From a virus (taxonomy: Duplodnaviria > Caudoviricetes), in IMG/VR virus record IMGVR_UViG_3300027733_000059, positions 1-61,414 of that record: a stretch of DNA of 61,414 nucleotides; one strand, written 5' to 3'. This document shows, piece by piece, positions 5,759-20,152 of the stretch. How positions within the stretch are numbered: the stretch's first letter is position 1; each line of letters opens with the position of its first letter. The notes under the pieces are model-generated. The model searched no databases. It saw only the letters and a program-made list of their open reading frames with translations, and was not told where the DNA came from. Both the position numbers and the translations under genes were made by a program.

Positions 5759-6736
5759 TTACGCGACGATTGTGTTCCAGAAATAACCGAGGTCAGATGC
5801 AATTACCTTGTTATCGAAAGCCATTTCTGCTTCGATACGGTCTGACTTGATTGATTCCATACGGAACTGTGAAGTACCGATTGTCTGTCCTAGTCCGCCT
5901 GAAACACCTGTCCAAGAGAAGGTGTAACCAGCAGAAGGAGTTAGTAGTCCTGGGTTTGGAGCAACGTGTGTTAGTAGAGCGCCCTTGCCATAAGCAAAGC
6001 CGTAAGCCTCTGATGCACCTTCGTTGTTCGTAGCCTTGACTGCCTTAGCAACCATAACGCGAGGGATGTCGAACATTGCTGCCAACATATCTGTTGTGAT
6101 TGTCTGTGAAGATGTGTACTTGATACGGTCTACCAAGTCAGGGTGATTCTTCAACTGACGGAATGTTTCGTAGCCAAGAACAAGTGTATTGGCTTCCATT
6201 CCTGTGTTTGAAAGAATCTCGCTCTTACCCGCTTCAATATCATTGATTGGGTCAGATGAAGTGTAGTCAGACCATTGCTTTGTCTGACCTGATGATGGAG
6301 TACCAGCAACACCTGTTACATCGTCTGCCCATACACCTGTTGTGAAGAAATCAGAAACGAACTGAAGTTCACGACGGAGCATTAGACGGCGAGTAACGAA
6401 CTCTGTTGCCTCACGAAGAGGATTCAAAGGAGCGTCTGCGTTTGCAGTTGTTTGGTCATCAACATCTTTGTGGAAAGCCCACACGTCTGCTGAATATGTA
6501 CCTGTTGAAAGGTTGTAACCTCCACCAGCAGATTCAGTTCCAGGCGCACGGCGTTGAGCCTCATCGCGGAACCAATCGTTCTTGGTGTAAGTAAAGAATT
6601 TGTCAGACTTCTTATCCACAGGAATTACTGGGAATACCTTGTCTGCAATGAAGTTGTCCTGATTTTGTAGGTATGCAACTGAGATGTTAGTCAGAATTGC
6701 GTCTACGTGGACGGAGTTAATATGTGGCTGTGGCAT
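5759..6736 (-). CDS. Major capsid protein
   Basis: 325 aa; VDAILTNISVAY...FIADKVFPVIPVDK and LKNHPDLVDRIKYT are typical of this MCP family; follows scaffold and cement. Confidence 0.9.
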   Translation of the reverse strand: MPQPHINSVHVDAILTNISVAYLQNQDNFIADKVFPVIPVDKKSDKFFTYTKNDWFRDEAQRRAPGTESAGGGYNLSTGTYSADVWAFHKDVDDQTTANADAPLNPLREATEFVTRRLMLRRELQFVSDFFTTGVWADDVTGVAGTPSSGQTKQWSDYTSSDPINDIEAGKSEILSNTGMEANTLVLGYETFRQLKNHPDLVDRIKYTSSQTITTDMLAAMFDIPRVMVAKAVKATNNEGASEAYGFAYGKGALLTHVAPNPGLLTPSAGYTFSWTGVSGGLGQTIGTSQFRMESIKSDRIEAEMAFDNKVIASDLGYFWNTIVA

Positions 6737-7149: not shown

Positions 7150-7947
7150 TTAGGCACCTTTCTCGGATAGGTATTGGCTGTAAAGGTCAGGGTTCTTTGT
7201 AGCAACATCAGCGAGCGCTTGCTCGAATGACTTTGCTACACCCTCTTCAACGGCTGACTTAGCAAGCGTAGTCATACGCTCGTAAGCATTGCCTGATTTG
7301 AAGTCCGCAGATTTGCCGATTTCTGCAAAAATAGAGGCTGATTCAGCCTGTGCATTGACAGATGCAAGTAGTTCTTCAACTGACTTTGCTAGGTCTGCAT
7401 CTACACTTGATAGACGGCGAAGTGCTGGTCCAACTTTTTCTGCATCGAGATTGAGGTTTGCCCAACCCTTTGCTTTTTCAACTGCTTCTGCATCAGCGTG
7501 AGCATCGCGTTCCTTTTGTAGTTCGGCGGTTGCTTCTTCTGCTTGCTTGCGGAAGTTTTCAATCATTTTGACGACTGACTCAGGCGCGGACTTCATATAG
7601 TCCATCTCCTCAGAGGATTCTTCTTCCATCTTCTTCTTTTTCTTTTCTTCTTCGGACATTTCAGCGTCCGCAGAAGCCTTGGCTAATGCCTCTTCAAGTT
7701 CAGAGATGCGAGCCTTAGCGATGGTTAGTTCCTCAGTAGGATTTACAACCTGCTCTTCAGTAGCCGTGGTAGATGTATCCTCCATTGTGGAGTCCTCCTC
7801 GGTGAGCGATTCGTCTAAAACCCTCTGAACTTCAGATTCTTCGGCGGACTTCATTACAAGCCAACCTTCGTGTAGATGAGCGGGATGGTCTACCCCGCTA
7901 GTTTCCTCAATGGCTAAATTCACCATTTTGCGAGTACGACCAGCCAA
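7150..7947 (-). CDS. Capsid scaffolding protein
   Basis: Acidic coiled-coil; C-terminal NPDLYSQY; many phi-x-K-[SA] sites; TTG start with AGGAG RBS. Confidence 0.8.
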   Translation of the reverse strand: MAGRTRKMVNLAIEETSGVDHPAHLHEGWLVMKSAEESEVQRVLDESLTEEDSTMEDTSTTATEEQVVNPTEELTIAKARISELEEALAKASADAEMSEEEKKKKKMEEESSEEMDYMKSAPESVVKMIENFRKQAEEATAELQKERDAHADAEAVEKAKGWANLNLDAEKVGPALRRLSSVDADLAKSVEELLASVNAQAESASIFAEIGKSADFKSGNAYERMTTLAKSAVEEGVAKSFEQALADVATKNPDLYSQYLSEKGA

Positions 7948-8049
7948 TGTGACTCCTAACGAAATAGAGATAACCTTTTAGCAACGCGCTAAAAAATTAA
8001 CTCGGGTCTAAACATACGAAGAATACCATAAGCCTAATTTGACCCTTTT

Positions 8050-8313
8050 TTAGTTTATTAAAACCCTCGTTTGGGCTAGAGCCTCGGGCAAGTTTGGGCA
8101 AATCCACATTGAAAAGGGATTGTCGTTTGCCCAAAAACGCGCTGTTCTAAAATGGAAGTCATCATCATCCATTTTGCTCCACACAAAAAAGGCTTGGGAG
8201 TCATTAGGTAAATCAATTTGAATTCCTGCATAGCCAGGGGGCGTAGTAACTTTATTTGCCTTGAGATTCATTGAACTCAAAATCTCAATTGTGCTATCAA
8301 TAATTGTTTTCAT
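8050..8313 (-). CDS. Hypothetical protein
   Basis: 87 aa; its ATG overlaps (ATGA) the stop of the hidden frame 8310-8555. Confidence 0.6.
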   Translation of the reverse strand: MKTIIDSTIEILSSMNLKANKVTTPPGYAGIQIDLPNDSQAFFVWSKMDDDDFHFRTARFWANDNPFSMWICPNLPEALAQTRVLIN

Positions 8314-8555
8314 CGTTTATTTCGAGCAGGTGGGCGAAGGATGTCCATATCATCCATCCACCGAGGGTCATCGGCATTACCATCAAATTCGCCTTCGGTG
8401 TCATTCTCGTCATAACTAATCTTAGGTTTCTTGCCCTTATAGTTTTTTGGTTCAGAATTATCTTCACCTTCGGAATCATCAATGTTGTATTTTCCACCGT
8501 GCGTCTTTTGGTCGTGCGTGGCGCCTAGATGCTTGTCTAGGCTCAGGCTTTTTTT
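8310..8555 (-). CDS. Unannotated -1 frame extension of 8543..8947 carrying the tenth tag (KKSLSLDKHLGATHDQKTHGGKYNIDDSEGED...RPPARNKR)
   Basis: Open frame with no ATG/GTG/TTG between the upstream in-frame TAA and the tag; entered by a -1 slip at CTA AAA AAA GCC; its stop is coupled to the next ATG. Confidence 0.7.
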   Translation of the reverse strand, partial: KKSLSLDKHLGATHDQKTHGGKYNIDDSEGEDNSEPKNYKGKKPKISYDENDTEGEFDGNADDPRWMDDMDILRPPARNKR

Positions 8556-8947
8556 AGTGCTGAAGCCTTATGCCCTACAAGAGTTTCTGTTTCTTCGCCA
8601 TCTTTATAGATACGAATAAGAACTGCTGGGTCATCTTTTTCAGCCTTAATGCTAAATGATGATTTTGGAATTCCAAGAACTCCATCGCGCATAATATGTT
8701 CAATCTTGCCTTGTGCTGTTCCACCTGATGCTTGCCAAGAAACCATATCGCCAACCGTTAATCCTGAAGCCTTTTTCATTGCATAAGCCATATCTCGCAT
8801 AGCCTTTTCAATCATTGATTTAGCGTAACCCTTAAGACCTGCGATTCCCTTTTGATTGACCTGTTCCTCAATCATTGCGTACTCGTCGTCTTTCATATTT
8901 TTCATAGGACCATTGCGGAGTTCTTTGAGAATCTTTTTGTCTTTCAT
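8543..8947 (-). CDS. Head-module protein with a C-terminal Tudor/SH3-like domain (DUF2945/Hva1-Tudor-like)
   Basis: LTVGDMVSWQASGGTAQGKI...LVGHKASALKK; ATGA overlap with the protease stop. Confidence 0.65.
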   Translation of the reverse strand: MKDKKILKELRNGPMKNMKDDEYAMIEEQVNQKGIAGLKGYAKSMIEKAMRDMAYAMKKASGLTVGDMVSWQASGGTAQGKIEHIMRDGVLGIPKSSFSIKAEKDDPAVLIRIYKDGEETETLVGHKASALKKA

Positions 8948-9645
8948 TTAGTTTCCTTTGGCTTTTTTTTCTTAGGATTCATAATTGTATCAACGTGAAC
9001 ATCTGTAGCAGTCGGGTCGTTTTTTTCCATATCTACATATAGGCGCTCTGCTCGTCCACCAATTGAATAGCCAAGGATTTCCCCACGTTGAATCTTTTCC
9101 CACGCCCAATCCTCCCAAATAACACCAAGAAATACTGTGTTTGCTGGATAAGTATGATTGACCATAATTCCGCTTGGGGTTGTAATTGGAACTGTTAGTT
9201 CGTATGGAAATGCCATAACTTCAACCCACTCACCTGCAACAATGTCGCGATTATGTTGTAATCGAATACGACGGTCATTGCTTCGGACATAATCCCAAAC
9301 TGCTCTTTGCAACTCCTCGGCATCTGTCCACTCATTGTGTGCATCGAGACGGTCAGGAATATACATAGCGCCAAGTGTGTATTTCTTTTCGCCTTCAGCC
9401 TTAGATACTTCATAAGAGCCGATTGATTTAGCAACATCATTGAAGGCAATTGGGAAAGCCTTTTGAGCCAACTCGAAAGTAATCTCTTCGAGGTTGGCTT
9501 CGCCATCTACTAAATACTGTGCAATATAGGTACTCGGGGTCCAGTTAGGCGCATCCCAGCGCTCTTCAAGGATTCGGTTAGATTCGACATTGAAGCGCCA
9601 CAGAGTATGTGGCTCATTACGGTAAAAGTTTACAAAATATCGCAA
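8944..9645 (-). CDS. Prohead serine protease (XkdF-like) with an N-terminal immunity-like domain
   Basis: YIPDRLDAHNEW...LQH...WEKIQRGEILGYSIGG; probable TTG start at 9645 after GGAGG. Confidence 0.8.
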   Translation of the reverse strand: MRYFVNFYRNEPHTLWRFNVESNRILEERWDAPNWTPSTYIAQYLVDGEANLEEITFELAQKAFPIAFNDVAKSIGSYEVSKAEGEKKYTLGAMYIPDRLDAHNEWTDAEELQRAVWDYVRSNDRRIRLQHNRDIVAGEWVEVMAFPYELTVPITTPSGIMVNHTYPANTVFLGVIWEDWAWEKIQRGEILGYSIGGRAERLYVDMEKNDPTATDVHVDTIMNPKKKKPKETK

Positions 9646-9649
9646 TTTG

Positions 9650-11854
9650 TTATGCCCTCCTCTCAGGGGATAGTTTACCAACCCCAGTTGATTTTATCAA
9701 GCCAGCCTGTTGAGCCGTCTCGAACTGTTGCATAATCAAAGTACCGACGCCAAGAATAGTTGCATAGTTAGATGGGCGAGGAACTCGGGTCGCTATCTTT
9801 ACCATTCTGTCCCAAGAACTACGGCGCTCGCCATCATCTGTGGATTTTCTGTAAATCTCATAAATATCGTGAAGAGCCTTTTCCTTAACTTGGAATGACT
9901 TCGGAGTATGAATCTGTAGTTCAACTTTAATACCATCGCGCTCTGCCTTTATGTTTACACCATCATAAGGGTCGCCTGATTGCCAAAAATTCTTAACTCT
10001 AACTTTCCATCCAGTTGCTTCAAATGCTGTAACGGCAGATTGCAATGTACCTGCGTAATCGGCATCTTTAACTGAAAGTGTGTAACGGTTGGCGTCAGAG
10101 ATTTCTTCTGATGCTTTCTTTCTATCACCTTGGTATCCCTGCTCGGCGTCTAAGTCAATCTTTCGAGCAAGAGAATCTGTAGATTTAACTCTTTGTGAAA
10201 GACCTTCAAGTTTTGCGCCTGACTGTTGTGCAATGCCTTCAACTAATTTTGTAATTACTGGTTCTGCTGCAACTGCTTTCTCACGAACTGCGCGAGCAAG
10301 TGCAATTGCTTCTTTTGATTGCCCCTGCTCAGGTTCTTTATCTGCAACCATATTGTTAGCCCACGCACCGTGCGTCTTTTGGTCGTGCGAGCCGTGCTTT
10401 TCAAGAGGTTCCCAAATAAATGATTTTTTAGCAGGTGCGTCAATTGCTTGACCTTCAAAACCATTATCCGCAGCCCACTTTAACGAAATATCTAATGCTT
10501 CTTTTGCATTTATTGACAGACGATAAACAGGCAACTCAGTTCCAGGATTATCAAAAGAAAAAGCAACAGCAGCGCCCCAAGTATGGTGTCCATCAATAAC
10601 ATAACCATCTTTAGAAATGAGAATTCTTTCATCTTTTGGAATCTTGCCATCTTCTTGAAATTTATTGTAAATGGCACCTGAACGAGAAGCGGAAATTTCT
10701 TTCTGAACTGGCTTTAGGGTTGTTGGGTCAATTTTTTCTTTTTCGGCGGTAACGCCTTGTTCGGCTTCAATCTCTGCCAAAAAGCGAGCGCGTTCTTTAC
10801 CAGGAATTTGAGGCATATCTTTGCGAGCAATTCCCATACCCTCATCGCCATAGAGCAATGTTCCCTTGATACTTAACTCTGTTAAGTCAGGGTGGTCGGT
10901 TCTCTTAGATGCCTTCATTAAAAATGCGGATAAGTTTTCAGGCTCAACTTCAGGGTGTCCTCCAGCCAAGATTTCCTCAGCGATTCCATCAGCCCAACTG
11001 CCGTGAGTTTTTTGGTCGTGCTTTCCTGGATTATGTTTTGCAACTTCTTCTTTCTCGGCGCGAGCAACCATTGACTCAGCCCACGCGAATCCTGCATCTC
11101 CGCCCCAAGCGTCCCAAGCGACTCGACCCGCTGACGGATAACCCTTTTCTCCTTGGCTAAATCCAACTGCGTTCTTATCAACTTCGTGACGAGAAAAGAA
11201 AGATTTCATACGCTTTAAAGTATCTAGTGAGATTGATTCACCTGATGCTAACTGTGATGCACGATGACGACCAACTGAAGTGAAACCGCCTCCAGCCTTA
11301 CCCTCGCTAATCCAATCAAGCGCACGGCGAGCAGCATCTCGAACTGTTTTTGGTGGAGTGTTATCTGCCTTTGAAAAACGGTGAATTTGGTCAAGGCGTT
11401 CTTGAGCCTTTTCCTTTGATGGATAGGTTCCAAACTTGCGTCGTCCCGTCGAATCATAAACCGTGAACTCGCCATCCTCTTCACGAATCATTTTCTCAAA
11501 TGGGTCAAGAGGAATCTCAATTGGCTCGATACGCATTTCATAACCTTGAGAAGTTAGGAAAGTCTGTACATTGCCCACATTGCTACCGCTGGATTTAATA
11601 ACCTCTGCGACCATATCGGCTGGTAACGAAGAGCCAAGCGATGTCAGGTCTACGTCATTGATTGAATCAACGAGGATTTCATAGGCATCCCAATCATCCT
11701 TTGGAGCCTCCATCTTGCGACGAGCCAACTCATTGAGGATTGTGTGGTGAACTTCGATTGTCGCTGGTGAGGCTTCAGACTTATGGATACGCTGATGCAG
11801 CGCGAGTAGTCTCTCAGCGCTTAAAGAAATTAACTTTGGGGCTATATCCGCCAT
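9650..11854 (-). CDS. Tagged polyprotein 4: small head-associated domains, ParB/Srx-like module, RelA/SpoT-like alarmone synthetase module
   Basis: ILISKDGYVIDGHH; RVKSTDSLARKI...DANRYTL...YDGVN...ELQIHT; two HDQKTHG tags. Confidence 0.8.
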   Translation of the reverse strand: MADIAPKLISLSAERLLALHQRIHKSEASPATIEVHHTILNELARRKMEAPKDDWDAYEILVDSINDVDLTSLGSSLPADMVAEVIKSSGSNVGNVQTFLTSQGYEMRIEPIEIPLDPFEKMIREEDGEFTVYDSTGRRKFGTYPSKEKAQERLDQIHRFSKADNTPPKTVRDAARRALDWISEGKAGGGFTSVGRHRASQLASGESISLDTLKRMKSFFSRHEVDKNAVGFSQGEKGYPSAGRVAWDAWGGDAGFAWAESMVARAEKEEVAKHNPGKHDQKTHGSWADGIAEEILAGGHPEVEPENLSAFLMKASKRTDHPDLTELSIKGTLLYGDEGMGIARKDMPQIPGKERARFLAEIEAEQGVTAEKEKIDPTTLKPVQKEISASRSGAIYNKFQEDGKIPKDERILISKDGYVIDGHHTWGAAVAFSFDNPGTELPVYRLSINAKEALDISLKWAADNGFEGQAIDAPAKKSFIWEPLEKHGSHDQKTHGAWANNMVADKEPEQGQSKEAIALARAVREKAVAAEPVITKLVEGIAQQSGAKLEGLSQRVKSTDSLARKIDLDAEQGYQGDRKKASEEISDANRYTLSVKDADYAGTLQSAVTAFEATGWKVRVKNFWQSGDPYDGVNIKAERDGIKVELQIHTPKSFQVKEKALHDIYEIYRKSTDDGERRSSWDRMVKIATRVPRPSNYATILGVGTLIMQQFETAQQAGLIKSTGVGKLSPERRA

Positions 11855-11885
11855 ACCGCAATGATAGCGGATAGGTTTACAACTG

Positions 11886-12032
11886 TTATTTAGTTTCTTG
11901 AACTGAGGTTAGTTTTTGTTCCACTACCTTGTCCAAGAAAGCAATCTCGTTATCGTCAGGCAAGCCTTCCATCTCAACAGGCATCGAGGCGTGAAGTTTT
12001 GATAACGCGTCTAATCTATCTTGTCTGCTCAT
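11886..12032 (-). CDS. Unannotated 48-aa protein (MSRQDRLDALSKLHASMP...)
   Basis: ATG 4 nt after the 12037 stop; fills the intergenic gap; no strong RBS. Confidence 0.55.
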   Translation of the reverse strand: MSRQDRLDALSKLHASMPVEMEGLPDDNEIAFLDKVVEQKLTSVQETK

Positions 12033-12036
12033 AGGG

Positions 12037-14670
12037 TTAGTTTACCGCAGGAGCGGGCTTTTCGCGAGGGGTGCCGTCGTAGACCAAGCCATCACCATCA
12101 CGGTCAATTGGACCCTGTTGGATTGTGCGACCTTCTTGGCTCAATCCCTTTTGATACTTCATATTGAGGCTATCTAGCAATCTTGCCCCAGCCCAAGAAT
12201 ACACGGGCTTGCCAGTAATTTGATTAGTGCCTGTCTCAAATCTATCGCCATACCCAATCATCAAGAAATCATTTGGAATAGGGAAATCATCCGAGTTAAT
12301 TGTTTTTGTTGAACCGCGGAAGGTGGTTGATGTTGGGTCATATTCTGTAACCATTTTTGAAACTAAAGAATCAAACTCAACTCGGTTTGCTGAACCCTCT
12401 GCAAAATCAGCGGAATTGTACATTCTGCCTTTTATCAACTCTCGCACATTTTGACTCATATATCTTTCATCAAAATCAAAACCTGATTTAGCCCAATGGC
12501 GAGCGCCATCCCAGGCTGTACCCACATCAATTCTTCCAATTCCCACAGCCACATACCAAGCCTCTTGTTGGGCTATAAACTTTGAACCAAATCCAACTCC
12601 AGCGTAATCATCGTCCATTTTGAATAGGTCGTGTTCAACAGCCCAAATTTCATTGCCATCCTTATCTTGGCTTCTATAGAAACTGCGTTGGAACTCACCA
12701 GCAGGGAAACCAGCATCATCCGTAACTTCGCCTTGTACGACTAATCTCTCGCCATCAAGATAAATGTTTGTTGTCGATGAACTAAGGGTTGTGGCAACTT
12801 CACCCTGAGCATTTTTTACTTCATAGGTCATTCCAAAAACTTCATCGAACGGACCGTGCAAATCTTCAGGATTAAATTCTTCGCCACCATTTTGTTCTTG
12901 CCACAATTGCGCCAAGGTTCCATCATCGCTTTCGATAAATTCCTGAACCATTTCGTCTTGAATTTTTTCGTAAAGGCGGTTTCTTAATTCTTCATTTGCT
13001 TTGTCGGTAGCCCCTTGGTCCTCATACTCATATTTTGCTTCCTGGAAAGCCTCTTCAACTCTTTCATCAATACCATCAGTTGCTTGGGCATACATTCCTG
13101 AGTCATTATTAACCATAAGTGTTAAATCTGACATATCAGCCTGTTCCGCAGGGGTCAGAGCGTTTTCTAAATCTTCTAATGAAGGACCAACGCCATCCAT
13201 TGTGTTAATTAGTGCTTCATCTTCCGCGGAGACACCACGCGCCCAATTACCGTGACTAGATTGGTCGTGTTGTTCGTGCTTTAAGACTGGCTTTAATCCA
13301 GCAGCAAAACGAATAACTTTAATCTTTTGAAATACCGCTGGAACGGACCAAAACTCTTCAGGGAGCAAGGCAACCTTTTGGTCAGCGAACTGCTTGCCTC
13401 TGTTATTAAAGAATGAATTCTGTCCGCGTGTTTCTGTTGTTAGCGCAGCGCGAGCCTTTTCTGTAAACATCTGAGAGTGGTGAACCCAAGCAGCCTCTTC
13501 GCCATCTTGACCAAATCCTCGACCAGTAGCAGCGTGTCCAAAGTAATCGTGAACTGCTCGGAATTTATTGTTTTGTGTATCTGAGAAAAGCGGGTGTGCG
13601 CCTGTTGTCTCTGTTTGCAAAACCTTTAACACCCCACGGCTGACATCATCAAACATTTCCTTTGATGTCTTATATGGGTCCTCTGCAACGAACTCAACCT
13701 TGACTCCTAGAGTCTTGGTCATAAAATCAAACTGCTCTTCTACTTCAGATGCCAGCGCTTCGTACTCATCGACTGCATCTCTATCCATCTTCGGAAGATT
13801 CTCATAGACATCAGCGATACGCGCTGCTCGTTCGCGATTGGCTACAACTTTGGTGTAATCAATTGTTTCGTCAGGATTTAAACCTTTTTTGAAAGCGTAT
13901 TCTTTTGCGCCATCTCGGGCGCCCTTGACTGAATCGGTTGGGTATCTATCCCCTGCCCAATTACCGTGAGTTGCTTGGTCGTGTTCACCTTGTCGGTGTT
14001 TTTGGACCTGGTACCTGCCAAGGCAGATATGGGGATTTAGAGATTGCCCTCTATCGCTTGCAAGATTTCGTCCACGAAGGCGTCCTTCTCCTTCTCGGTC
14101 ATTTCCTTGACTGGCTTCGGAGTTTCCACCAAGACGGGCTTTGTTTGTTCGCTCATCGACCTCATCCTTCATATAAATATACGAGTCATTGATGACATCG
14201 TAGATTGCTTTTTGTTCGTTTTTAAATCCTGCTCGTACACCCTCTGACCGAGAACTGTATCTTCTCGAGACATCTAAGTAAAGTTTTCCTTCCTCAACCC
14301 AAGCGCCGAAGAAACTGCCCTTGTTATCAAGCAACTCAGCGTGGTCGTTGATGTAATCCCTCAAAGCAGTCCTCAAAGCAGCCCTAGAAGCCTTCAGAGG
14401 CGCGAAATCAAGCACTCTCTCGGCTCCTACATCAGAGGCGATAAAGCCATCTTTAGCAGATTGTTTGGTGCGGATGTCAATGCTGAATCCAGGAGTTTTT
14501 TTCTCACTCAACTTGTCTATCAATCCCGTGATAGTTCTACCTTCAACGGTTTGCCCATCAACTGTGAGGTTTGCCCAATTACCGTGAGTCTTTTGGTCGT
14601 GCGAGCCGTGCTTTTCAAGGACGAGAGAAAGCCCTTTAGAGGATGAGTATTGAAATTTTTCTAGGTTCAT
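12037..14670 (-). CDS. Tagged polyprotein 3: unknown module, HDYFGH module, acidic linker plus GNAT-like module
   Basis: Three tags; RAVHDYFGH...GEEAAW; YAGVGFGSKF...GARHWAKSGF resembles GNAT motifs A/B; probable start MNLEK (ATGA overlap with 14667..15476). Confidence 0.8.
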   Translation of the reverse strand: MNLEKFQYSSSKGLSLVLEKHGSHDQKTHGNWANLTVDGQTVEGRTITGLIDKLSEKKTPGFSIDIRTKQSAKDGFIASDVGAERVLDFAPLKASRAALRTALRDYINDHAELLDNKGSFFGAWVEEGKLYLDVSRRYSSRSEGVRAGFKNEQKAIYDVINDSYIYMKDEVDERTNKARLGGNSEASQGNDREGEGRLRGRNLASDRGQSLNPHICLGRYQVQKHRQGEHDQATHGNWAGDRYPTDSVKGARDGAKEYAFKKGLNPDETIDYTKVVANRERAARIADVYENLPKMDRDAVDEYEALASEVEEQFDFMTKTLGVKVEFVAEDPYKTSKEMFDDVSRGVLKVLQTETTGAHPLFSDTQNNKFRAVHDYFGHAATGRGFGQDGEEAAWVHHSQMFTEKARAALTTETRGQNSFFNNRGKQFADQKVALLPEEFWSVPAVFQKIKVIRFAAGLKPVLKHEQHDQSSHGNWARGVSAEDEALINTMDGVGPSLEDLENALTPAEQADMSDLTLMVNNDSGMYAQATDGIDERVEEAFQEAKYEYEDQGATDKANEELRNRLYEKIQDEMVQEFIESDDGTLAQLWQEQNGGEEFNPEDLHGPFDEVFGMTYEVKNAQGEVATTLSSSTTNIYLDGERLVVQGEVTDDAGFPAGEFQRSFYRSQDKDGNEIWAVEHDLFKMDDDYAGVGFGSKFIAQQEAWYVAVGIGRIDVGTAWDGARHWAKSGFDFDERYMSQNVRELIKGRMYNSADFAEGSANRVEFDSLVSKMVTEYDPTSTTFRGSTKTINSDDFPIPNDFLMIGYGDRFETGTNQITGKPVYSWAGARLLDSLNMKYQKGLSQEGRTIQQGPIDRDGDGLVYDGTPREKPAPAVN
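14037..14156 (-). CDS. Candidate overprinted 39-aa ORF nested out of frame in polyprotein 3
   Basis: MSEQTKPVLVETPKPVKEMTEKEKDAFVDEILQAIEGNL; AAGGA 8 nt upstream of ATG. Confidence 0.5.
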   Translation of the reverse strand: MSEQTKPVLVETPKPVKEMTEKEKDAFVDEILQAIEGNL

Positions 14671-15476
14671 TGTTTTACCAATTCTATATCCCAAACCTTG
14701 CCACGTTGAGCAACGACTTTAAACTTACTTCCTCGAGGCATAAGGAACTCAGCCTCAGTCGTAGAAGGTGTCCATCCATACATAGGTTCGTGATAGCCCG
14801 CAGGAAAGATTCCTTTTGTACCAGCGGGTAACTTCATACGGAAAACTAAACCGTCGTAATAAGGTTGAGAACCGCCAAATTGTTGAGCAACTCCAGCATC
14901 AATTGTCGTGGAGGTGTAGCCCTTATCTTCCCAAGTATCTCCAACTTTGAGAGTTTCAAAAAACTTTAATCCGTTGCCTTTGACTCCCCGATAGGTAACT
15001 AACTCCTCGGATAGCGGTGGAGCAACATCCATCGCCTTATCAAGTAAATCAATTGTAGATTTATAGCCATCTTCACTTATCTGAGGGTCGCGCAGAGCCT
15101 CATTCATATCGTAGCCAAGGCGACTTTCATAATTGCTTATCGCTCCTGAAAACTCAGGATGAGCAGCCTCGGTGAAACCCTTTAATCGTTGGCTAAATAG
15201 TTTCTCCATAAAATAAACTTCTTTATCTGTATCAGACGCAAAAACTTTTATTTCATCTTTGAACCAAGCAGCAAGATTTTCATAATTGCCTGAAGCCCAG
15301 TTACCGTGGGTTTTTTGGTCGTGTTCACCGTGCTTTCGAACTTCTTCTTCTTGAGGTTTAGGAATTAAATCAGGATGAATTGGGTCAATAATTTCCCAGC
15401 CGTAATCTTTAGTCTCCAAGAGGTACACCTGCCTCTCTGTAAGCGGTCTCAAGTCCGTCTGCGAAACTTGCTCCAA
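14667..15476 (-). CDS. Tagged protein 2: ADP-ribosyltransferase (VIP2/C3-like R-S-E type)
   Basis: MNEALR...TYRGV...KGYTSTT...EAEFLMPRGSKFKV; one tag; probable TTG start near 15419. Confidence 0.85.
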   Translation of the reverse strand: MEQVSQTDLRPLTERQVYLLETKDYGWEIIDPIHPDLIPKPQEEEVRKHGEHDQKTHGNWASGNYENLAAWFKDEIKVFASDTDKEVYFMEKLFSQRLKGFTEAAHPEFSGAISNYESRLGYDMNEALRDPQISEDGYKSTIDLLDKAMDVAPPLSEELVTYRGVKGNGLKFFETLKVGDTWEDKGYTSTTIDAGVAQQFGGSQPYYDGLVFRMKLPAGTKGIFPAGYHEPMYGWTPSTTEAEFLMPRGSKFKVVAQRGKVWDIELVKQ

Positions 15477-17730
15477 ATAATTTACTTGTTATGAATATAT
15501 GATTTCGAGCGAACTCTACTCCGTGTCCGCCGTGAGGTGAAGTAGCACTAATCGTTGTAGCATAATGAGCAATTTCGTGAACAATAGTAGGTTCCGCTTT
15601 TGAATAACCTCTGCTTACTCTCAAAATACTTACGGGTAGGTCGCCCTTAAATCCAATTTGATACGCCCCAGCCTCATTAGCAGATGAGACTTTAACCTCA
15701 AGATTATTTCCAGCAACCCCACCTTTTCCAAATGCCTCAACAAACCAATCTTGTCTTATTACATCTCTTACATAACCATTAAGACCTCGAGGCGTTCCAT
15801 CTAAATGCTTTTGTCCTAAAGGCGAAATTAGCGAGGTTGTAACTTTTTTAGACCAAGCAGTAAAATCTTTTGAATACTGTTTGTAGGCTTTGTCGTAATC
15901 AGCGTAATTAGTAAATTGTGTGCGATTAGGGGCAGAAGGCATATCTGCATTTTTATCTTGAATTTGATTATGATTTTTTTCTTCAGCAGCATAAACTTTG
16001 CTTACAAGAGGGTCAGGTTGTTTTTTCAATTCAAACATCTCGCGATGGCTTAATCCGCTTCCACCTTTTTGACCTGTAGCCCAGTTACCGTGAGTGGACT
16101 GGTCGTGTCCTCCGCCTTCGTGCTTTACAACACCACTCCAGCCTTTTGCATCATCTGTCAAAGAAAAAGAATGGTCAATTTTGATACCGTCTTGAGAATA
16201 AGAACGAGCAAAATTTAACATTGCAGTAGCAATGCCTTGGCGTTTGTATTCAGGTTCTACTTGAATTCTATCTATTATCGCTCCCGCTTCAGGTACAAAA
16301 TTATTAGGGCGACTAGATTCAAGGTCAGCAATTTGTTTCACTCCTCCATCAACAAAAAGATAACCTTTTGTAGTCATCGAGATATTTCCGTCTGCTGTTT
16401 TTTCGTTGTCGTGAAGTAGTTTTATTTTTGTGCCATCTTTAGTTTCATAAATGGCTGTCACTCTATTAGATGTCATTCCATCGTCATCGGTAGGATAAGA
16501 CTTATGTTCAATTTGTGTAATTCGTTGCTGAACTTCAATTTCTTTTGCGGAGCGCGCTGAACTATTAGCCCAAGAGCCGTGCGTCTTTTGGTCGTGTTCT
16601 TGGTGCTTTATTACATCTTCTTCATCACGGATAAAAGGAATAGTGTTAAATAAAGTATGAAAAATCATACCTAGTTCAACGCCTTTTTTAAGCGTATGAG
16701 GCTCAATCATTTTCACTTCAATGACCGTAAATGTTGTAGGCTCTTTGCGAGTCCAAGAATTAACTGTGATGTCTTGACCATCTTTAATTGGTCTTGTCTG
16801 ACGGTCATTTGTATACTTTACCGTAGAAGTCTCAATTTTAGAAAAGTTTCCAGTAATGGCTCCATCTCTAATAATTTCATAGCGGACTTTTGCTGCTGGG
16901 TCATTACTATCCATACTGTCCCAACTACGGTCCCTTGGGTCCTGGAATCTATACCCAGTTACTAAATCTTCGCCAGGTCTATTTAATTTGAAAGTTCTTG
17001 CTGAGACGGCACCTCTAGCCCAGTAAGGAGTAGTTACTGTTGTAATTCCTACTACTTGAAATTTACCGCTAGTAATAGTTTCAAAATCTGACGGGTAAAA
17101 ACTTTTCTCAGGCTTGACTGAGACACCTTTTGCGCCTTCTTGAATTTTTAGAATTACTTTTGTGTCGCTTGGTGTGTAAGACCTGTCTGCTGCATACCAT
17201 TGAGCCACACCCAAAGACCGAGTGGTTGAAACCAACGGCATATCAATTGTGTCACCCTCTTTGAGATTAGTGAACTGCTCAAGCAACGCTTTTGATTCTG
17301 CATCACCCGCTGCCATACCTCTATACAAAGTTGGTTGCGGACGACCATTGGCAATTGCTGTTAGAACTGCCTCGGTTTGATTTCTTACTGCGCCCGTTGA
17401 GGATGCACCAAAACCGCGTTGAGTTAAATAATTCTCAGAGCCACCAACATCTTTATCACTTTTAGGAACTGGCAAGCCAAGCATCTCGCCCGCGTACTGA
17501 CGGTATAAATCTACAAACTGGTCGCCATCGACACCGTGTTCCCAGTTTTCCCAAAATTTATCGGTGGTTCCAGTTGCGTTGCGTGGAGCGTCAGGAACTT
17601 TATCTTTTGGACTCCATCCCGATAACTCAGAGGTAACGCCTGTAGCCCAGTTTCCGTGTGTCTTTTGGTCGTGTTCTTGATGCTTGATAACTGGACGAAG
17701 CCCTGGCTCAAATTTAATCACTAGACTCAT
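15409..17730 (-). CDS. Tagged polyprotein 1: ADP-ribosyltransferase-like, GNAT and HEXXH zincin modules
   Basis: LYRG...LVSTTRS...DFETITSGKFQV; IDRIQVEPEYKRQGIATAML; IVHEIAHY...HGGHGVEF; three tags. Confidence 0.8.
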   Translation of the reverse strand: MSLVIKFEPGLRPVIKHQEHDQKTHGNWATGVTSELSGWSPKDKVPDAPRNATGTTDKFWENWEHGVDGDQFVDLYRQYAGEMLGLPVPKSDKDVGGSENYLTQRGFGASSTGAVRNQTEAVLTAIANGRPQPTLYRGMAAGDAESKALLEQFTNLKEGDTIDMPLVSTTRSLGVAQWYAADRSYTPSDTKVILKIQEGAKGVSVKPEKSFYPSDFETITSGKFQVVGITTVTTPYWARGAVSARTFKLNRPGEDLVTGYRFQDPRDRSWDSMDSNDPAAKVRYEIIRDGAITGNFSKIETSTVKYTNDRQTRPIKDGQDITVNSWTRKEPTTFTVIEVKMIEPHTLKKGVELGMIFHTLFNTIPFIRDEEDVIKHQEHDQKTHGSWANSSARSAKEIEVQQRITQIEHKSYPTDDDGMTSNRVTAIYETKDGTKIKLLHDNEKTADGNISMTTKGYLFVDGGVKQIADLESSRPNNFVPEAGAIIDRIQVEPEYKRQGIATAMLNFARSYSQDGIKIDHSFSLTDDAKGWSGVVKHEGGGHDQSTHGNWATGQKGGSGLSHREMFELKKQPDPLVSKVYAAEEKNHNQIQDKNADMPSAPNRTQFTNYADYDKAYKQYSKDFTAWSKKVTTSLISPLGQKHLDGTPRGLNGYVRDVIRQDWFVEAFGKGGVAGNNLEVKVSSANEAGAYQIGFKGDLPVSILRVSRGYSKAEPTIVHEIAHYATTISATSPHGGHGVEFARNHIFITSKLFGASFADGLETAYREAGVPLGD

Positions 17731-18734
17731 TGTGTTCCCCTATCAGGTGGAACTATCACCATTGTGCAACGGCAATGAGGGTGAACAATAGGCGCCTCAA
17801 GCCCGATAGAGAACACACCATTCCAAGGTGCCAACTCACCATCAAGCGGAGCGCATATCTCGCAAGTGCGCTCATCTTGGGCTGTTACCCACATCTTTTG
17901 AGCGCTAGGGTCTATGAAACCCGCTTCATCGGCTTGCTTCCAGCCTTCATAGCGACCTTCATTTTGTGCAATCTGAATCTCGGTGCGGGCAATCATTGTT
18001 GCTCGGGCAGAACGCAATCTATCTGCGTATTTAGATGCGGAGGTGGCAGATGCTTCGCGGGCTTTTGCCTCTTTCATCCCGCCTTTAATCAAACGCTCCA
18101 ACTCACGCTTTTCAAACTTTGTTACTGCTTCCGCCCACTTTGGGTGTAAACCAATAATGTTTTTAATACGGCGGGCTGTAGCGCGATAATCTATTTGTTC
18201 ATTAAATGAATCAATAATAATCTTACGAATTGCAATGCGTGTTAATTCATCAATGCTAACAATTAACTGCCCTGCTCTTTTAGATGCAAAGGCTAAAGAA
18301 TTAGGATTTGTTTTATTAAACGACATTGAGAATGTAACTGGAGGTGGCGTTGGGCTTGCCCAATCAGGAATCTTTGTAAAATCCATATTAGCCATAGGCG
18401 CCTTGTTTGTAATCTTTACAGGCTTAGGCAGAAATGCAGGTAAGAATAATTTAGGTGCAATAGATTGAATCTGTTGTATTGCCTCTTTACCGCCTATTTC
18501 GATAGATGTCATCAAGGCATCTTCAATCTGCTTTCTATTTCCTGCAACAGTAATTGCATTAAGAAGTCGATTTAAAGAATCAGGGTCCAGGCGTTGAATG
18601 ATACGAGCCAACTCTTCAACCTTGATTGTGTTGGTTGATTTACGAATCGCTTCGTAGAGAACGCGGGCTAACGCCTGTTCTTCCGCTGTTAATGGATTAC
18701 GACGGTTTCCGTCTCTGCCAAAGATTAGAGGCAT
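17727..18734 (-). CDS. MuF / SPP1 gp7-family head morphogenesis protein, short form
   Basis: RATMIARTE...KMWVTAQDERTCEICAPLDG...HPHCRC; directly after the portal. Confidence 0.9.
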   Translation of the reverse strand: MPLIFGRDGNRRNPLTAEEQALARVLYEAIRKSTNTIKVEELARIIQRLDPDSLNRLLNAITVAGNRKQIEDALMTSIEIGGKEAIQQIQSIAPKLFLPAFLPKPVKITNKAPMANMDFTKIPDWASPTPPPVTFSMSFNKTNPNSLAFASKRAGQLIVSIDELTRIAIRKIIIDSFNEQIDYRATARRIKNIIGLHPKWAEAVTKFEKRELERLIKGGMKEAKAREASATSASKYADRLRSARATMIARTEIQIAQNEGRYEGWKQADEAGFIDPSAQKMWVTAQDERTCEICAPLDGELAPWNGVFSIGLEAPIVHPHCRCTMVIVPPDRGTQ

Positions 18735-18736
18735 TG

Positions 18737-20152
18737 TTAATCCACATCGCCGTCTAGCGGTTCTGCTCCTTCAGGAATCTCTAACTCTTCTTCCAATGAT
18801 GGAGGTGCATCGAATCCAGCGTCATCTGCCCCTTCAGGCATAGGAGGCATACCGAAGTTTGCTCCATCGTGTTCTGCTGGAGGTAAACCTGCCAACTCAC
18901 GAAGATAATCTTCCAACTTAGGGTCAGGCATAAGAACGCCCGCTTGAGCCAACTTAGTTACGAAGTCTGAAATCTCAGTTAAATCAACGTGGCTTACTTC
19001 ACCGTAAGTTAGGTAAGGAGCGCGAGATATATCCATTCCGTTTAACTTCATCAAGCGAGGAATAGCGTATTGATTCATTACTTCAGCAATGTTTTTAGCA
19101 ATTGAATCAACTGCCATTGACCATAAATCCATCTTTGATGCGCCAAGAGCGTAAGAGCCAACTCTGTCTGAGCCTAGAAGGATAAAGTCTGACAGGATTG
19201 ACATTGACATACGTTGGTCATAGCGATTGATAATCTTGTCTGTATCGAATTGACGAGAACCGCCTGATGAGAGCAACTGTAAGTCAAACATCTTGTGTCC
19301 AGCATCGTCATACATCGCTGGCATAACAATGCCTTCTTGTTCATTGCGCTTGATAGATGTAACAATGCTTTGAATCGAGGCTAATACTTGCTGCTGCTCG
19401 ACTGTTGCTGATGAAGAAAGATATTCAGGTGGTAGGTAGGCAACTGGCAAACCTGCTAAGTCGCGCTCAATACCGATTGCTTCAATTTCTTCAATACGGC
19501 GCTTGAAAAACCAAGGACGGTAAGCATTACGAAGAATGGAGCGACCTTCAGGGTTATTCTTTGTTGTTACTGTACGGAAAAGCAAAGCCTTATCAATTGG
19601 AATTGTATGTATTCCACCCGTTGATGGGTCTACTTGCACCATCGCTTGAATTCCGCCGTCTGCATCAATCTCCCAACGGAATAAAGTTTCCTGGGCGCGA
19701 ATAGGCATCTTGCGCCAACCGATTTTTCCGTCGTTGTGCTTTGAGCGTTTCTTTGGGTCGTTGCCATCGCCCTTGCGGACTTTGTAAACAATTTCGTGAT
19801 ACGAGAATCCAAAAACTAACATTGAAAGAATTTGTGAAAGTGTTGCATCCCAGGAATCGGACATATCGTGAATACACGATTCAATAAATGCTGCTGCTTC
19901 TTTATCTTCAGGCTTTACATCGCCGTCTGATGAATCATCGCTATATGGGTCTACGCGCCATTCAAGACGAGTAATAACTTTTTCAACTGCAAACAGCATT
20001 GACCCGATTGTTGGGTCGTTATCTGCCATTTCGCGGTATGTCTTTGCACCGCGTATGCCTCTAAGATTGACGAGAAATTCTTCATAAACTGTTCCGCCTG
20101 AACGGCGTAAACCAGTTGAGCCAAACTCCTGTAGGTCAGGTCTTTCTGCCAT
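18737..20152 (-). CDS. Portal protein (DUF935 / Mu gp29-like)
   Basis: 471 aa; NNPEGRSILRNAY...IERDLAGLPV...GSYALG; acidic tail. Confidence 0.9.
   Translation of the reverse strand: MAERPDLQEFGSTGLRRSGGTVYEEFLVNLRGIRGAKTYREMADNDPTIGSMLFAVEKVITRLEWRVDPYSDDSSDGDVKPEDKEAAAFIESCIHDMSDSWDATLSQILSMLVFGFSYHEIVYKVRKGDGNDPKKRSKHNDGKIGWRKMPIRAQETLFRWEIDADGGIQAMVQVDPSTGGIHTIPIDKALLFRTVTTKNNPEGRSILRNAYRPWFFKRRIEEIEAIGIERDLAGLPVAYLPPEYLSSSATVEQQQVLASIQSIVTSIKRNEQEGIVMPAMYDDAGHKMFDLQLLSSGGSRQFDTDKIINRYDQRMSMSILSDFILLGSDRVGSYALGASKMDLWSMAVDSIAKNIAEVMNQYAIPRLMKLNGMDISRAPYLTYGEVSHVDLTEISDFVTKLAQAGVLMPDPKLEDYLRELAGLPPAEHDGANFGMPPMPEGADDAGFDAPPSLEEELEIPEGAEPLDGDVD

Follow-up and report, generated by a model that had tools for sequence, protein, structure and literature searches.

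The Hva1_TUDOR gene of an uncultured freshwater virus (Duplodnaviria, Caudoviricetes; record IMGVR_UViG_3300027733_000059) ends on the minus strand in CTA AAA AAA GCC TGA, and an open −1 frame behind this end encodes an acidic tail preceded by a short motif, KH..HDQ.THG (here termed the tag), which recurs in other genes of the head module. We analyzed the complete virus record of 61,414 bases (CheckV completeness, 100%), which we call the window. Comparison with related genomes showed that the break between the two frames is real and conserved, that it is always a −1 break located at an A-run, and that relatives whose frames are joined encode the same fusion. We consider it moderately probable that A AAA AAA is a programmed −1 recoding site, with ribosomal frameshifting operating in the window. 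Phage tail chaperones and a few capsid proteins are textbook examples of programmed frameshifting; the site described here sits in a different head-assembly gene family, one that is widespread in uncultured freshwater phages.

A conserved −1 break at the end of the Tudor gene

The initial annotation had pointed to this gene end, to a TAA upstream in the −1 frame, and to a missing start codon, all of which can be read directly in the sequence. Between 8567 and 8313, the −1 frame contains no stop. It is closed upstream by a TAA at 8568-8570, six codons before the slip point, and no ATG, GTG, or TTG lies between this TAA and the tag in the window. A AAA AAA is the sole shift-prone heptamer of the form X XXY YYZ between that TAA and the zero-frame TGA (8543-8545). 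From the slip point on, the −1 frame encodes 79 residues (SLSLDKHLGATHDQKTHGGKYN...DDPRWMDDMDILRPPARNKR), arranged as SLSLDKHLGATHDQKTHGG, an acidic stretch, and then DDPRWMDDMDILRPPARNKR, and the predicted fusion has 133 + 79 = 212 amino acids (aa), with the trans-frame junction ..LKK-SLSLDKH... As had also been observed at the outset, this frame has no entry in the list of open reading frames (ORFs), and it ends in a TGA (8310-8312) that shares bases with the ATG (8311-8313) of the next gene, which encodes a protein of 87 aa. The run of seven A residues (A7) is by itself unremarkable, with 19 occurrences in the window versus 49.5 expected from shuffles, i.e., a depletion (all 19 matches are on the minus strand). 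What makes the junction significant is the frame together with the tag and the relatives.

We then gathered relatives of the Tudor gene from IMG/VR and from Joint Genome Institute (JGI) metagenome contigs. A Hva1_TUDOR relative was encoded in 589 of the 601 matched IMG/VR stretches, and 155 distinct junctions were classified after copies with an identical context of 210 nucleotides (nt) had been removed. In this comparison of related genomes, which the initial annotation had proposed, the need for a −1 shift to reach the tag was kept in 45 distinct junctions, and a +1 shift was needed in none. Another 25 junctions were in frame, and 85 had no HDQ tag in reach, either because the Tudor part was fused to other modules or because the tail was absent. 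All −1 junctions lie at an A-run in Leu-Lys-Lys codons (A7, n = 16; A9, n = 27; A10, n = 2). A run of at least seven A's was present in 45/45 junctions needing −1 versus 13/25 in-frame junctions (Fisher P = 1.7e-5, obtained on a smaller, earlier junction set). The position of the zero-frame stop is likewise fixed: it was the fourth codon counted after the Leu codon (KKx*) in all 24 −1 junctions with a recorded stop position and in 22/22 of a later set (the window again and 21 further loci).

The same picture was obtained at the protein level. Among the 120 listed homologue clusters, 70 end in KKx, which is the short form according to the gene caller (133 to 212 aa, mostly 134 aa), and 32 are in-frame proteins composed of the Tudor part, the tag, and the tail (183 to 235 aa). 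The in-frame fusion P0091 has 212 aa, and in-frame junctions align with the predicted junction of the window (for example, ..LNK-SLVEKHG..). Because gene callers miss the frameshift, short annotations end in KKx and the conserved tail goes unannotated.

The tail evolves as a coding sequence in the tag frame. For the junction type of the window (type A), the pooled ratio of nonsynonymous to synonymous differences per site (pN/pS) was 0.17 in the tag frame versus 1.67 in the other frames, and 788 differences were at third positions of the tag frame versus 243 and 207 at the other positions. Five disjoint pairs of sequences gave ratios of 0.14 to 0.30 in the tag frame versus 1.25 to 2.28 in the other two frames. 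The tail frame was open to a normal stop in 45/45 −1 loci. Between the tag and the stop that precedes it, 0/45 of these loci have an ATG, GTG, or TTG, and a near-cognate start (CTG, ATT, ATC, or ATA) is likewise absent in 19/45. Since the tag frame is under purifying selection and has no start codon of its own, the comparative data indicate that the tail is translated. The initial annotation had deduced a fusion of about 212 aa, produced by −1 frameshifting or transcriptional slippage, and this is supported by the 45 kept breaks, the selection in the tag frame, and the in-frame homologue of 212 aa.

Several relatives carry variations of the junction. One and the same junction was seen out of frame with A9 and in frame with A10 in two sets of loci (L166, L168, L171, and L173-L177 versus L134; L004, L005, and L019 versus L130), and judging from these sequences, the length of the homopolymer toggles between related phages. 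In-frame A9 forms also exist (L015, L018, and L129-L133), for which truncated proteins are expected upon slipping of the run. P0011 and P0015 have lost the zero-frame stop (TAG to CAG, as deduced from the protein) and read about 85 out-of-frame residues across the tail, where the zero frame is open because the GAN-rich tail codons give no stops. In P0006 and P0057, an additional tagged insert separates the barrel from the N-terminal helices; the C terminus of these proteins is still ..TLKKA, and they probably use the same frameshift junction.

A predicted hairpin downstream of the run and the probable mechanism of the slip

A hairpin with a stem of 7 base pairs (bp) and a loop of 6 nt is predicted to start 6 nt after the A-run of the window. 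Its free energy is −14.2 kcal/mol (z, −3.87), and none of 200 shuffles was as stable. Hairpins of 6 to 7 bp were present in 13/13 A7 loci folded (−8.7 to −16.1 kcal/mol; median z, −3.2), and a comparable hairpin was found in 0/11 A9 loci (median z, +0.74) and 0/17 in-frame loci (median z, +0.36) among the loci folded. In the 13 A7 loci, 13/14 stem positions are invariant; the seventh pair is G.U in one later locus and a mismatch in L001, L025, and L047. The third-codon positions in the stem are all invariant (5/5), whereas 50/70 degenerate positions elsewhere in the tail vary (naive P of ~0.002), and such freezing of synonymous sites suggests a constraint beyond coding. In three later A7 loci outside the folded set (L145, L146, and L156), the 30 nt inspected match the start of the A7 junction sequence. 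A search of 8200-8800 against Rfam with permissive thresholds gave no match. We regard the hairpin as a probable 3′ frameshift stimulator. In the sections of Atkins et al. 2016 (PMC5009743) that deal with such signals, the usual place of 3′ stimulators is given as 5 to 9 nt (or 6 to 9 nt) past the heptamer, and A-runs over Lys codons are described as classic bacterial shift sites. A Shine-Dalgarno (SD)-like AAGG is located 10 nt before the run in the 10 type A loci inspected; it was not counted as a stimulator, since it is dictated by His-Lys-Val/Ala codons and is missing in most A9 loci.

We propose that most ribosomes would translate GCC, terminate at the TGA, and yield the Tudor protein of 134 aa, while a fraction, aided by the hairpin 6 nt downstream, would slip one base back on the two Lys codons. 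The slipped ribosomes would yield the 212-aa fusion, composed of the Tudor domain, the truncated KH..HDQ.THG tag, and a disordered acidic tail ending in MDDMDILRPP. The slip rate would set the ratio of long to short product and probably also the dose of the 87-aa gene. With few exceptions, tail-bearing loci have the ATG of the next gene overlapping or directly adjoining the stop of the tail frame. The 87-aa gene has no SD-like motif; 10/18 structural genes of the phage have one, and those lacking it (7/18 besides the 87-aa gene) mostly start at or just after the stop of the upstream gene. The missing SD motif and the ATGA overlap fit ribosomes coming in via the tail frame, and the 87-aa gene is probably translationally coupled to it. 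The long form would be part of the procapsid interior, where its tail, in one class with the nine other tagged cargo modules, would serve for loading or protease processing.

A homopolymer sequencing or assembly error hiding a real A8, an alternative raised in the initial annotation, is scarcely credible to us. Some platforms are error-prone at homopolymers, but Logan contigs of three runs from three independent studies (2017, 2024, and 2025) span 8549-8555 with 0 gaps and an empty indel table; a fourth run had no coverage of the site. The 15 A7 relatives, in addition, stem from more than a dozen different data sets. An in-frame A8 form of the A7-plus-hairpin junction, the observation that the initial annotation had named as decisive against a genuine break, was found neither among 53 longer tail-bearing proteins, nor in the tails of the 120 listed Tudor homologue clusters, nor in the 16 distinct A7 loci. 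With three assemblies keeping A7 and no A8 form in these sets, the error explanation fails. It is also extremely unlikely that the tail is a decaying remnant, silenced by a one-base deletion and no longer expressed. Tail-less relatives show that the tail can be lost, but the low pN/pS values in the tag frame were reached at pS of up to ~0.6, near-clonal copies among the relatives are excluded by this synonymous divergence, and the 45 distinct −1 junctions, with none of the +1 kind, always break at the A-run and always keep the tail frame open. We attach the same very slight probability to production of the tail alone, through non-canonical initiation or re-initiation after the TGA. The CTG that overlaps the TGA in the window had been considered a possible start. 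This alternative fails because CTG occurs at the junction only where the zero-frame stop is TGA and turns into CTA in loci with a TAA stop, and because 19/45 junctions have no near-cognate start at all. Furthermore, the tag would sit a few residues from such a start, and the in-frame relatives show the tail as the usual C-terminal continuation of the Tudor protein.

Transcriptional slippage, in which RNA polymerase adds one A to some transcripts, would give the identical 212-aa fusion, and we hold it to be the leading alternative, though unlikely, for the window. It gains from the fact that 29/45 −1 junctions are A9 or A10, with no hairpin in the 11 A9 loci folded, and from the recurrence of A9 junctions as in-frame A10 (L130, L134, P0282, and P0010), which is expected if both genotypes give both products. 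Runs of nine A or T slip efficiently in bacteria, for example in Thermus dnaX, according to the account of slippage in PMC5009743; the run of the window has only seven A's, and the efficient slippage described there is for runs of nine. The perfect split between A7 with a hairpin and A9 without one suggests two mechanisms, and the conserved hairpin of the A7 loci is downstream of the run, where the ribosome meets it. An RNA-hairpin stimulator of slippage, reportedly described by Penno and coworkers in 2015, is said to lie upstream of the run. We infer that in the window the slip is ribosomal rather than transcriptional. For the A9/A10 relatives the order is probably reversed, with transcriptional slippage ahead of ribosomal frameshifting, since the same A9 junctions are found as in-frame A10 while the A8 form of the A7-plus-hairpin junction was not found. 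Phase variation at the DNA level, where the run would change length in replication so that an A8 subpopulation encodes the fusion and A7 only the short form, appears very unlikely. Both the A9 and the A10 state of one junction are seen in relatives, and contigs drop rare variants, but the A8 version was missing from all three sets named above. That the tail is under purifying selection in deeply diverged A7 genomes (pS of ~0.45) requires such genomes to express it regularly, and a frozen hairpin would be without a role under phase variation.

Several observations weigh against a programmed ribosomal frameshift in the window. In E. coli, the heptamer A_AAA_AAA shifts far less readily than A_AAA_AAG does, as stated in the part of PMC5009743 on bacterial shift sites; the tRNA-Lys of the phage host may differ. 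The stem is essentially invariant, so that double-sided covariation is absent, and its frozen sites could reflect another constraint, for example the two zero-frame TAGs located in the stem arms. At the site, contigs and not raw reads were compared, and rare variants such as a minor A8 would be dropped by them. Relatives with an in-frame fusion exist, which means that a low long-to-short ratio is not essential everywhere, and since L011 and L024, close relatives (the latter sharing 95% identity in the Tudor core), have no tail, the long form is dispensable in some lineages. In both of these relatives a gene of 87 or 88 aa follows directly after the Tudor stop, and L011 retains a remnant of the hairpin. 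A tail-less variant was also present in run X3 alongside the form of the window, with a loose end exactly at the run (window position 8550).

The junction has changed state repeatedly. Phylogenetic analysis of the Tudor core placed three A7 loci, one of them the window, among in-frame forms, and the other ten A7 loci in a different clade with A9 forms; at least three changes of state are needed on this tree. Approximately unbiased (AU) tests, run after a quick tree had been viewed and on a short alignment of 219 columns, rejected trees constrained to unite all A7 loci (P = 3.5e-6) and trees constrained to separate all shifted loci from the in-frame loci (P = 7e-6). The cassette of junction and hairpin is nearly identical on both Tudor backbones and has thus moved by recombination. 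In L027 (2870-3186), an A7 junction and hairpin as in the window are followed, after the tag, by a different tail, of the type ending in ..NPRAMDNMDTGR and then about 50 residues. Given this swap, the tag looks like a joint for exchanging cassettes.

The Tudor protein, the tag, and the acidic tail

We then analyzed the two parts of the predicted fusion. The Tudor protein matches Pfam entry PF11160 (Hva1_TUDOR, formerly DUF2945) over residues 66 to 119 (E value, 1.9e-08; 34.7 bits versus a cut-off of 24.1). An AlphaFold2 (AF2) model of an in-frame homologue shows three N-terminal helices (residues 3 to 64) and strands forming a beta-barrel (residues 70 to 129) at a predicted local distance difference test (pLDDT) score of 70 to 79. 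Past residue ~138, tag included, the score is below 50 and nothing packs on the Tudor barrel. According to this model, the short product is a complete fold, and the tag and tail are probably disordered. We had considered that the Tudor domain reads the tag; this idea was dropped in view of the unpacked tag and tail, a weak negative at such pLDDT values. A Foldseek search of the model against the PDB returned only generic SH3, Tudor, and CAP-Gly barrels, none at an E value of ≤0.001. In many metagenomic relatives the Tudor end continues straight into other open modules, several of which resemble the start of a prohead protease. In Roseobacter phage CRP-811 (L125:3081-5528), an 816-aa ORF annotated as "major capsid protein" consists of Hva1_TUDOR, a Peptidase_S78 prohead protease, and Phage_capsid. 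The genomic setting and these fusions suggest that the Tudor protein works inside the procapsid.

Scanned in six frames, the window contains the pattern H[DE]Q.[ST]H exactly ten times, in every case on the minus strand and within 8.5 to 17.7 kb; five large ORFs account for nine of these matches, and the tenth is in the −1 frame extension. The tenth tagged module announced by the initial annotation stands as far as its tag has all seven invariant residues (K-H, H-D-Q, and H-G), but it is truncated, without the W-A of 9/9 other copies. It reads H-G-G-K-Y-N where relatives of types B and C read H-G-A-W-A-N-G-K-Y-N; as these types keep W-A, the type of the window carries a four-residue deletion. 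Over 24 nt, the tag of the tail is identical to the tag at 10366-10389, and all ten tags share the codons CAC GAC CAR ... CAC GGN (for example at 8499-8516 and 10370-10387), indicating either nucleotide-level conservation or gene conversion among the modules. A profile built from the ten copies matched 633 protein clusters at an E value of ≤0.001 and 199 at ≤1e-10. The maximum in one protein was 20 copies (P0121; 7,059 aa), and P0122 (2,201 aa) has 9 copies and eight ADP-ribosyltransferase domains, with a tag between each domain and the next. A Pfam scan covered 48 of the 150 listed profile matches: 10 have ADP-ribosyltransferase domains, 30 have no Pfam family at an E value of ≤1e-5, and in one an XkdF protease is followed by three tagged modules. 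We found no description of the KH..HDQ.THG tag in the literature, and "HDQ" does not appear in Iyer et al. 2017 (PMC5512222).

Beyond the tag, the sequence is acidic (isoelectric point, 4.5; 17 D+E versus 11 K+R), and the extension belongs to no Pfam or PHROG family. Its end, MDDMDILRPP, resembles three other conserved motifs of the head module, located at the protease C terminus, at the capsid protein N terminus, and inside the scaffold-like protein (Table 1). The four motifs follow a loose pattern, [VM]-D-x-[IYM]-[LM], and may represent a common protease or docking signal; given the looseness of the pattern, this is a lead. Judged by gene position, the tail would enter the procapsid and be cleaved by the XkdF protease in the manner of the other tagged modules, and the slip may set the copy number of an acidic cargo peptide, as the initial annotation had proposed. 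A more speculative proposal, which we judge rather improbable as a whole, is that the slip is a dosing valve. Only slipped ribosomes would reach the ATGA, so that one hairpin would fix the stoichiometry of two procapsid components; MDDMDILRPP would be a docking or cutting signal, the cut peptide would be injected, and the A9/A10 relatives would do the same by stuttering. If this were true, the signal could be read by the XkdF protease or the capsid interior, and the acidic peptide, once cut off at the tag, could stay in the head as an internal peptide and be injected with the DNA. Polymerase stuttering at A9/A10 would then make in-frame and out-of-frame genotypes nearly neutral and freely interchangeable.

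Comparison with known systems and layout of the head module

We found no report in the literature of frameshifting in the Hva1_TUDOR gene family or at such a genome position; of the papers listed, one on Cryptococcus Hva1 and one on Pfam dealt with this domain. The closest parallels are those in the sections of Atkins et al. 2016 (PMC5009743) on phage and dnaX frameshifting. In lambda gpG/gpGT, too, ribosomes slip by −1 shortly before a morphogenesis gene ends, giving a short major and a long minor product with the N-terminal part in common, and its extension adds a second function in a fixed ratio that matters for assembly (PMC5009743). Lambda gpG/gpGT belongs to the tail module, whereas the present gene is of the Hva1_TUDOR family and sits in the head module between protease and scaffold; its extension is disordered, tagged, and acidic, and many relatives are in frame or without extension. 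In dnaX (tau/gamma), two products are likewise made from one gene at an A-run in Lys codons, and lineages differ in route, with ribosomal frameshifting at A_AAA_AAG in E. coli and slippage at a run of nine in Thermus (PMC5009743). The parallel here is provided by A7 with a 3′ hairpin, A9/A10 (no hairpin in the 11 A9 loci folded), and plain in-frame forms. Unlike in dnaX, the slip here extends the product instead of truncating it, the heptamer ends in A and not G, and no conserved upstream SD-like stimulator is established.

Frameshifting also extends the C terminus of a head protein, producing two forms, in T3/T7 gene 10, Lactobacillus phage A2, and Listeria phages A118, A500, and PSA (head-protein examples in PMC5009743). 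In those phages the major capsid protein itself is extended, often by an Ig-like domain displayed on the shell, whereas here it is an accessory Tudor-domain protein that receives a disordered tail. Retroviral and totiviral Gag-Pol is alike in that a frameshift joins a minority product to an assembly component at a fixed small copy number per particle (PMC5009743); here, either half of the fusion might do the targeting or be the cargo. Finally, phage polyvalent or MuF-linked effectors form chains of enzyme modules (ART and GNAT) next to MuF, portal, and protease and are believed to be packaged into the head and to undergo processing by peptidases, as outlined in the portions of Iyer et al. 2017 (PMC5512222) on these proteins. 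The tail of the window bears the same junction tag as the enzyme modules of its genome but has no enzyme domain. The probable recoding site is in this way linked to the little-understood tagged cargo modules of phage heads and offers a handle on how module dose is set. The family is also a natural comparison of three routes to a short and a long form, convenient for separating ribosomal from transcriptional slippage.

The head module is on the minus strand, in the order portal-position ORF, MuF, ORFs with enzyme modules, protease, Hva1_TUDOR, 87-aa protein, scaffold-like protein, 131-aa protein, and capsid protein (Table 1).

Table 1. Features of the junction and of the head module, and contigs covering the site (window coordinates)
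Feature	Position	Strand	Basis or remark
471-aa ORF	18737-20152	minus	usual portal position
MuF	17727-18734	minus	
Four large ORFs with enzyme modules, ADP-ribosyltransferase among them	between MuF and XkdF-type protease	minus	
Tagged cargo ORFs of the head module	9650..17730	minus	tag scan; home of the nine other tag copies
Weak GNAT matches	in ORF 15409-17730	minus	Pfam
ADP-ribosyltransferase domain	in ORF 14667-15476	minus	Pfam
XkdF-type prohead protease	8944..9681	minus	Pfam PF14550, E 7.7e-13; directly upstream of Tudor gene
Protease C terminus ..VHVDTIMNPKKKK (VHVDTIMNP; DVHVDTIMNPKKKK)	8947-9003	minus	loose motif likeness
Hva1_TUDOR gene, zero frame, 134 aa	8543..8947	minus	ORF list; Pfam; short product ending ..ALKKA
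Slippery run A AAA AAA, zero frame (CT)A AAA AAA	8549..8555	minus	A7
Zero-frame stop TGA	8543..8545	minus	one codon past run
Back-up zero-frame TAGs	8537-8539 and 8525-8527	minus	
Predicted hairpin GCCUAGA-CAAGCA-UCUAGGC	8523..8542	minus	7-bp stem, 6-nt loop, 6 nt after A-run
−1-frame extension, 79 codons	8313..8549	minus	C-terminal part of the predicted 212-aa trans-frame product
Tenth tag copy K-H-L-G-A-T-H-D-Q-K-T-H-G-G	8493..8534	minus	alignment
Most conserved tail part DDPRWMDDMDILRPP	8328..8372	minus	M-D-x-M-D and R invariant across 29 tails
87-aa gene	8050..8313	minus	ATG overlaps tail-frame TGA (ATGA)
Scaffold-like acidic protein	7150-7947	minus	
Internal scaffold motif ..EEMDYMKSAPE (EEMDYMKSAPESVVKMIE)	~7590-7610	minus	loose motif likeness
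131-aa protein	between scaffold-like protein and capsid protein	minus	
Major capsid protein	5759-6736	minus	
Capsid protein N terminus SVHVDAILTN	6686-6715	minus	loose motif likeness
Contig X3 record 1	8250-8590		identical to window
Contig X4 record 9	8250-8950		15 substitutions
Contig X7 record 12	8392-8643		3 substitutions

Among deposited phage genomes, neither a DNA search with 7900-9700 nor a tblastn search with the tail gave a match, and the Tudor protein had only two matches, both remote; a relative of the tail was not found among species-representative genomes. The head region (22.8 kb) of phage Laroye has no HDQ tag in its forward frames. Fresh water is the origin of the window and of all 20 sequencing runs holding the stretch. 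The scaffold-like protein is ~40% identical to proteins of Arthrobacter phages, and one Tudor homologue is labeled as coming from a Micrococcales metagenome-assembled genome (MAG); these hints to the host point to Actinobacteria. A run of eight A's is also present at 8963-8970 (minus strand), in the Lys-rich C terminus of the protease; it lies ~20 nt ahead of the protease stop and immediately precedes the start codon of the Tudor gene.

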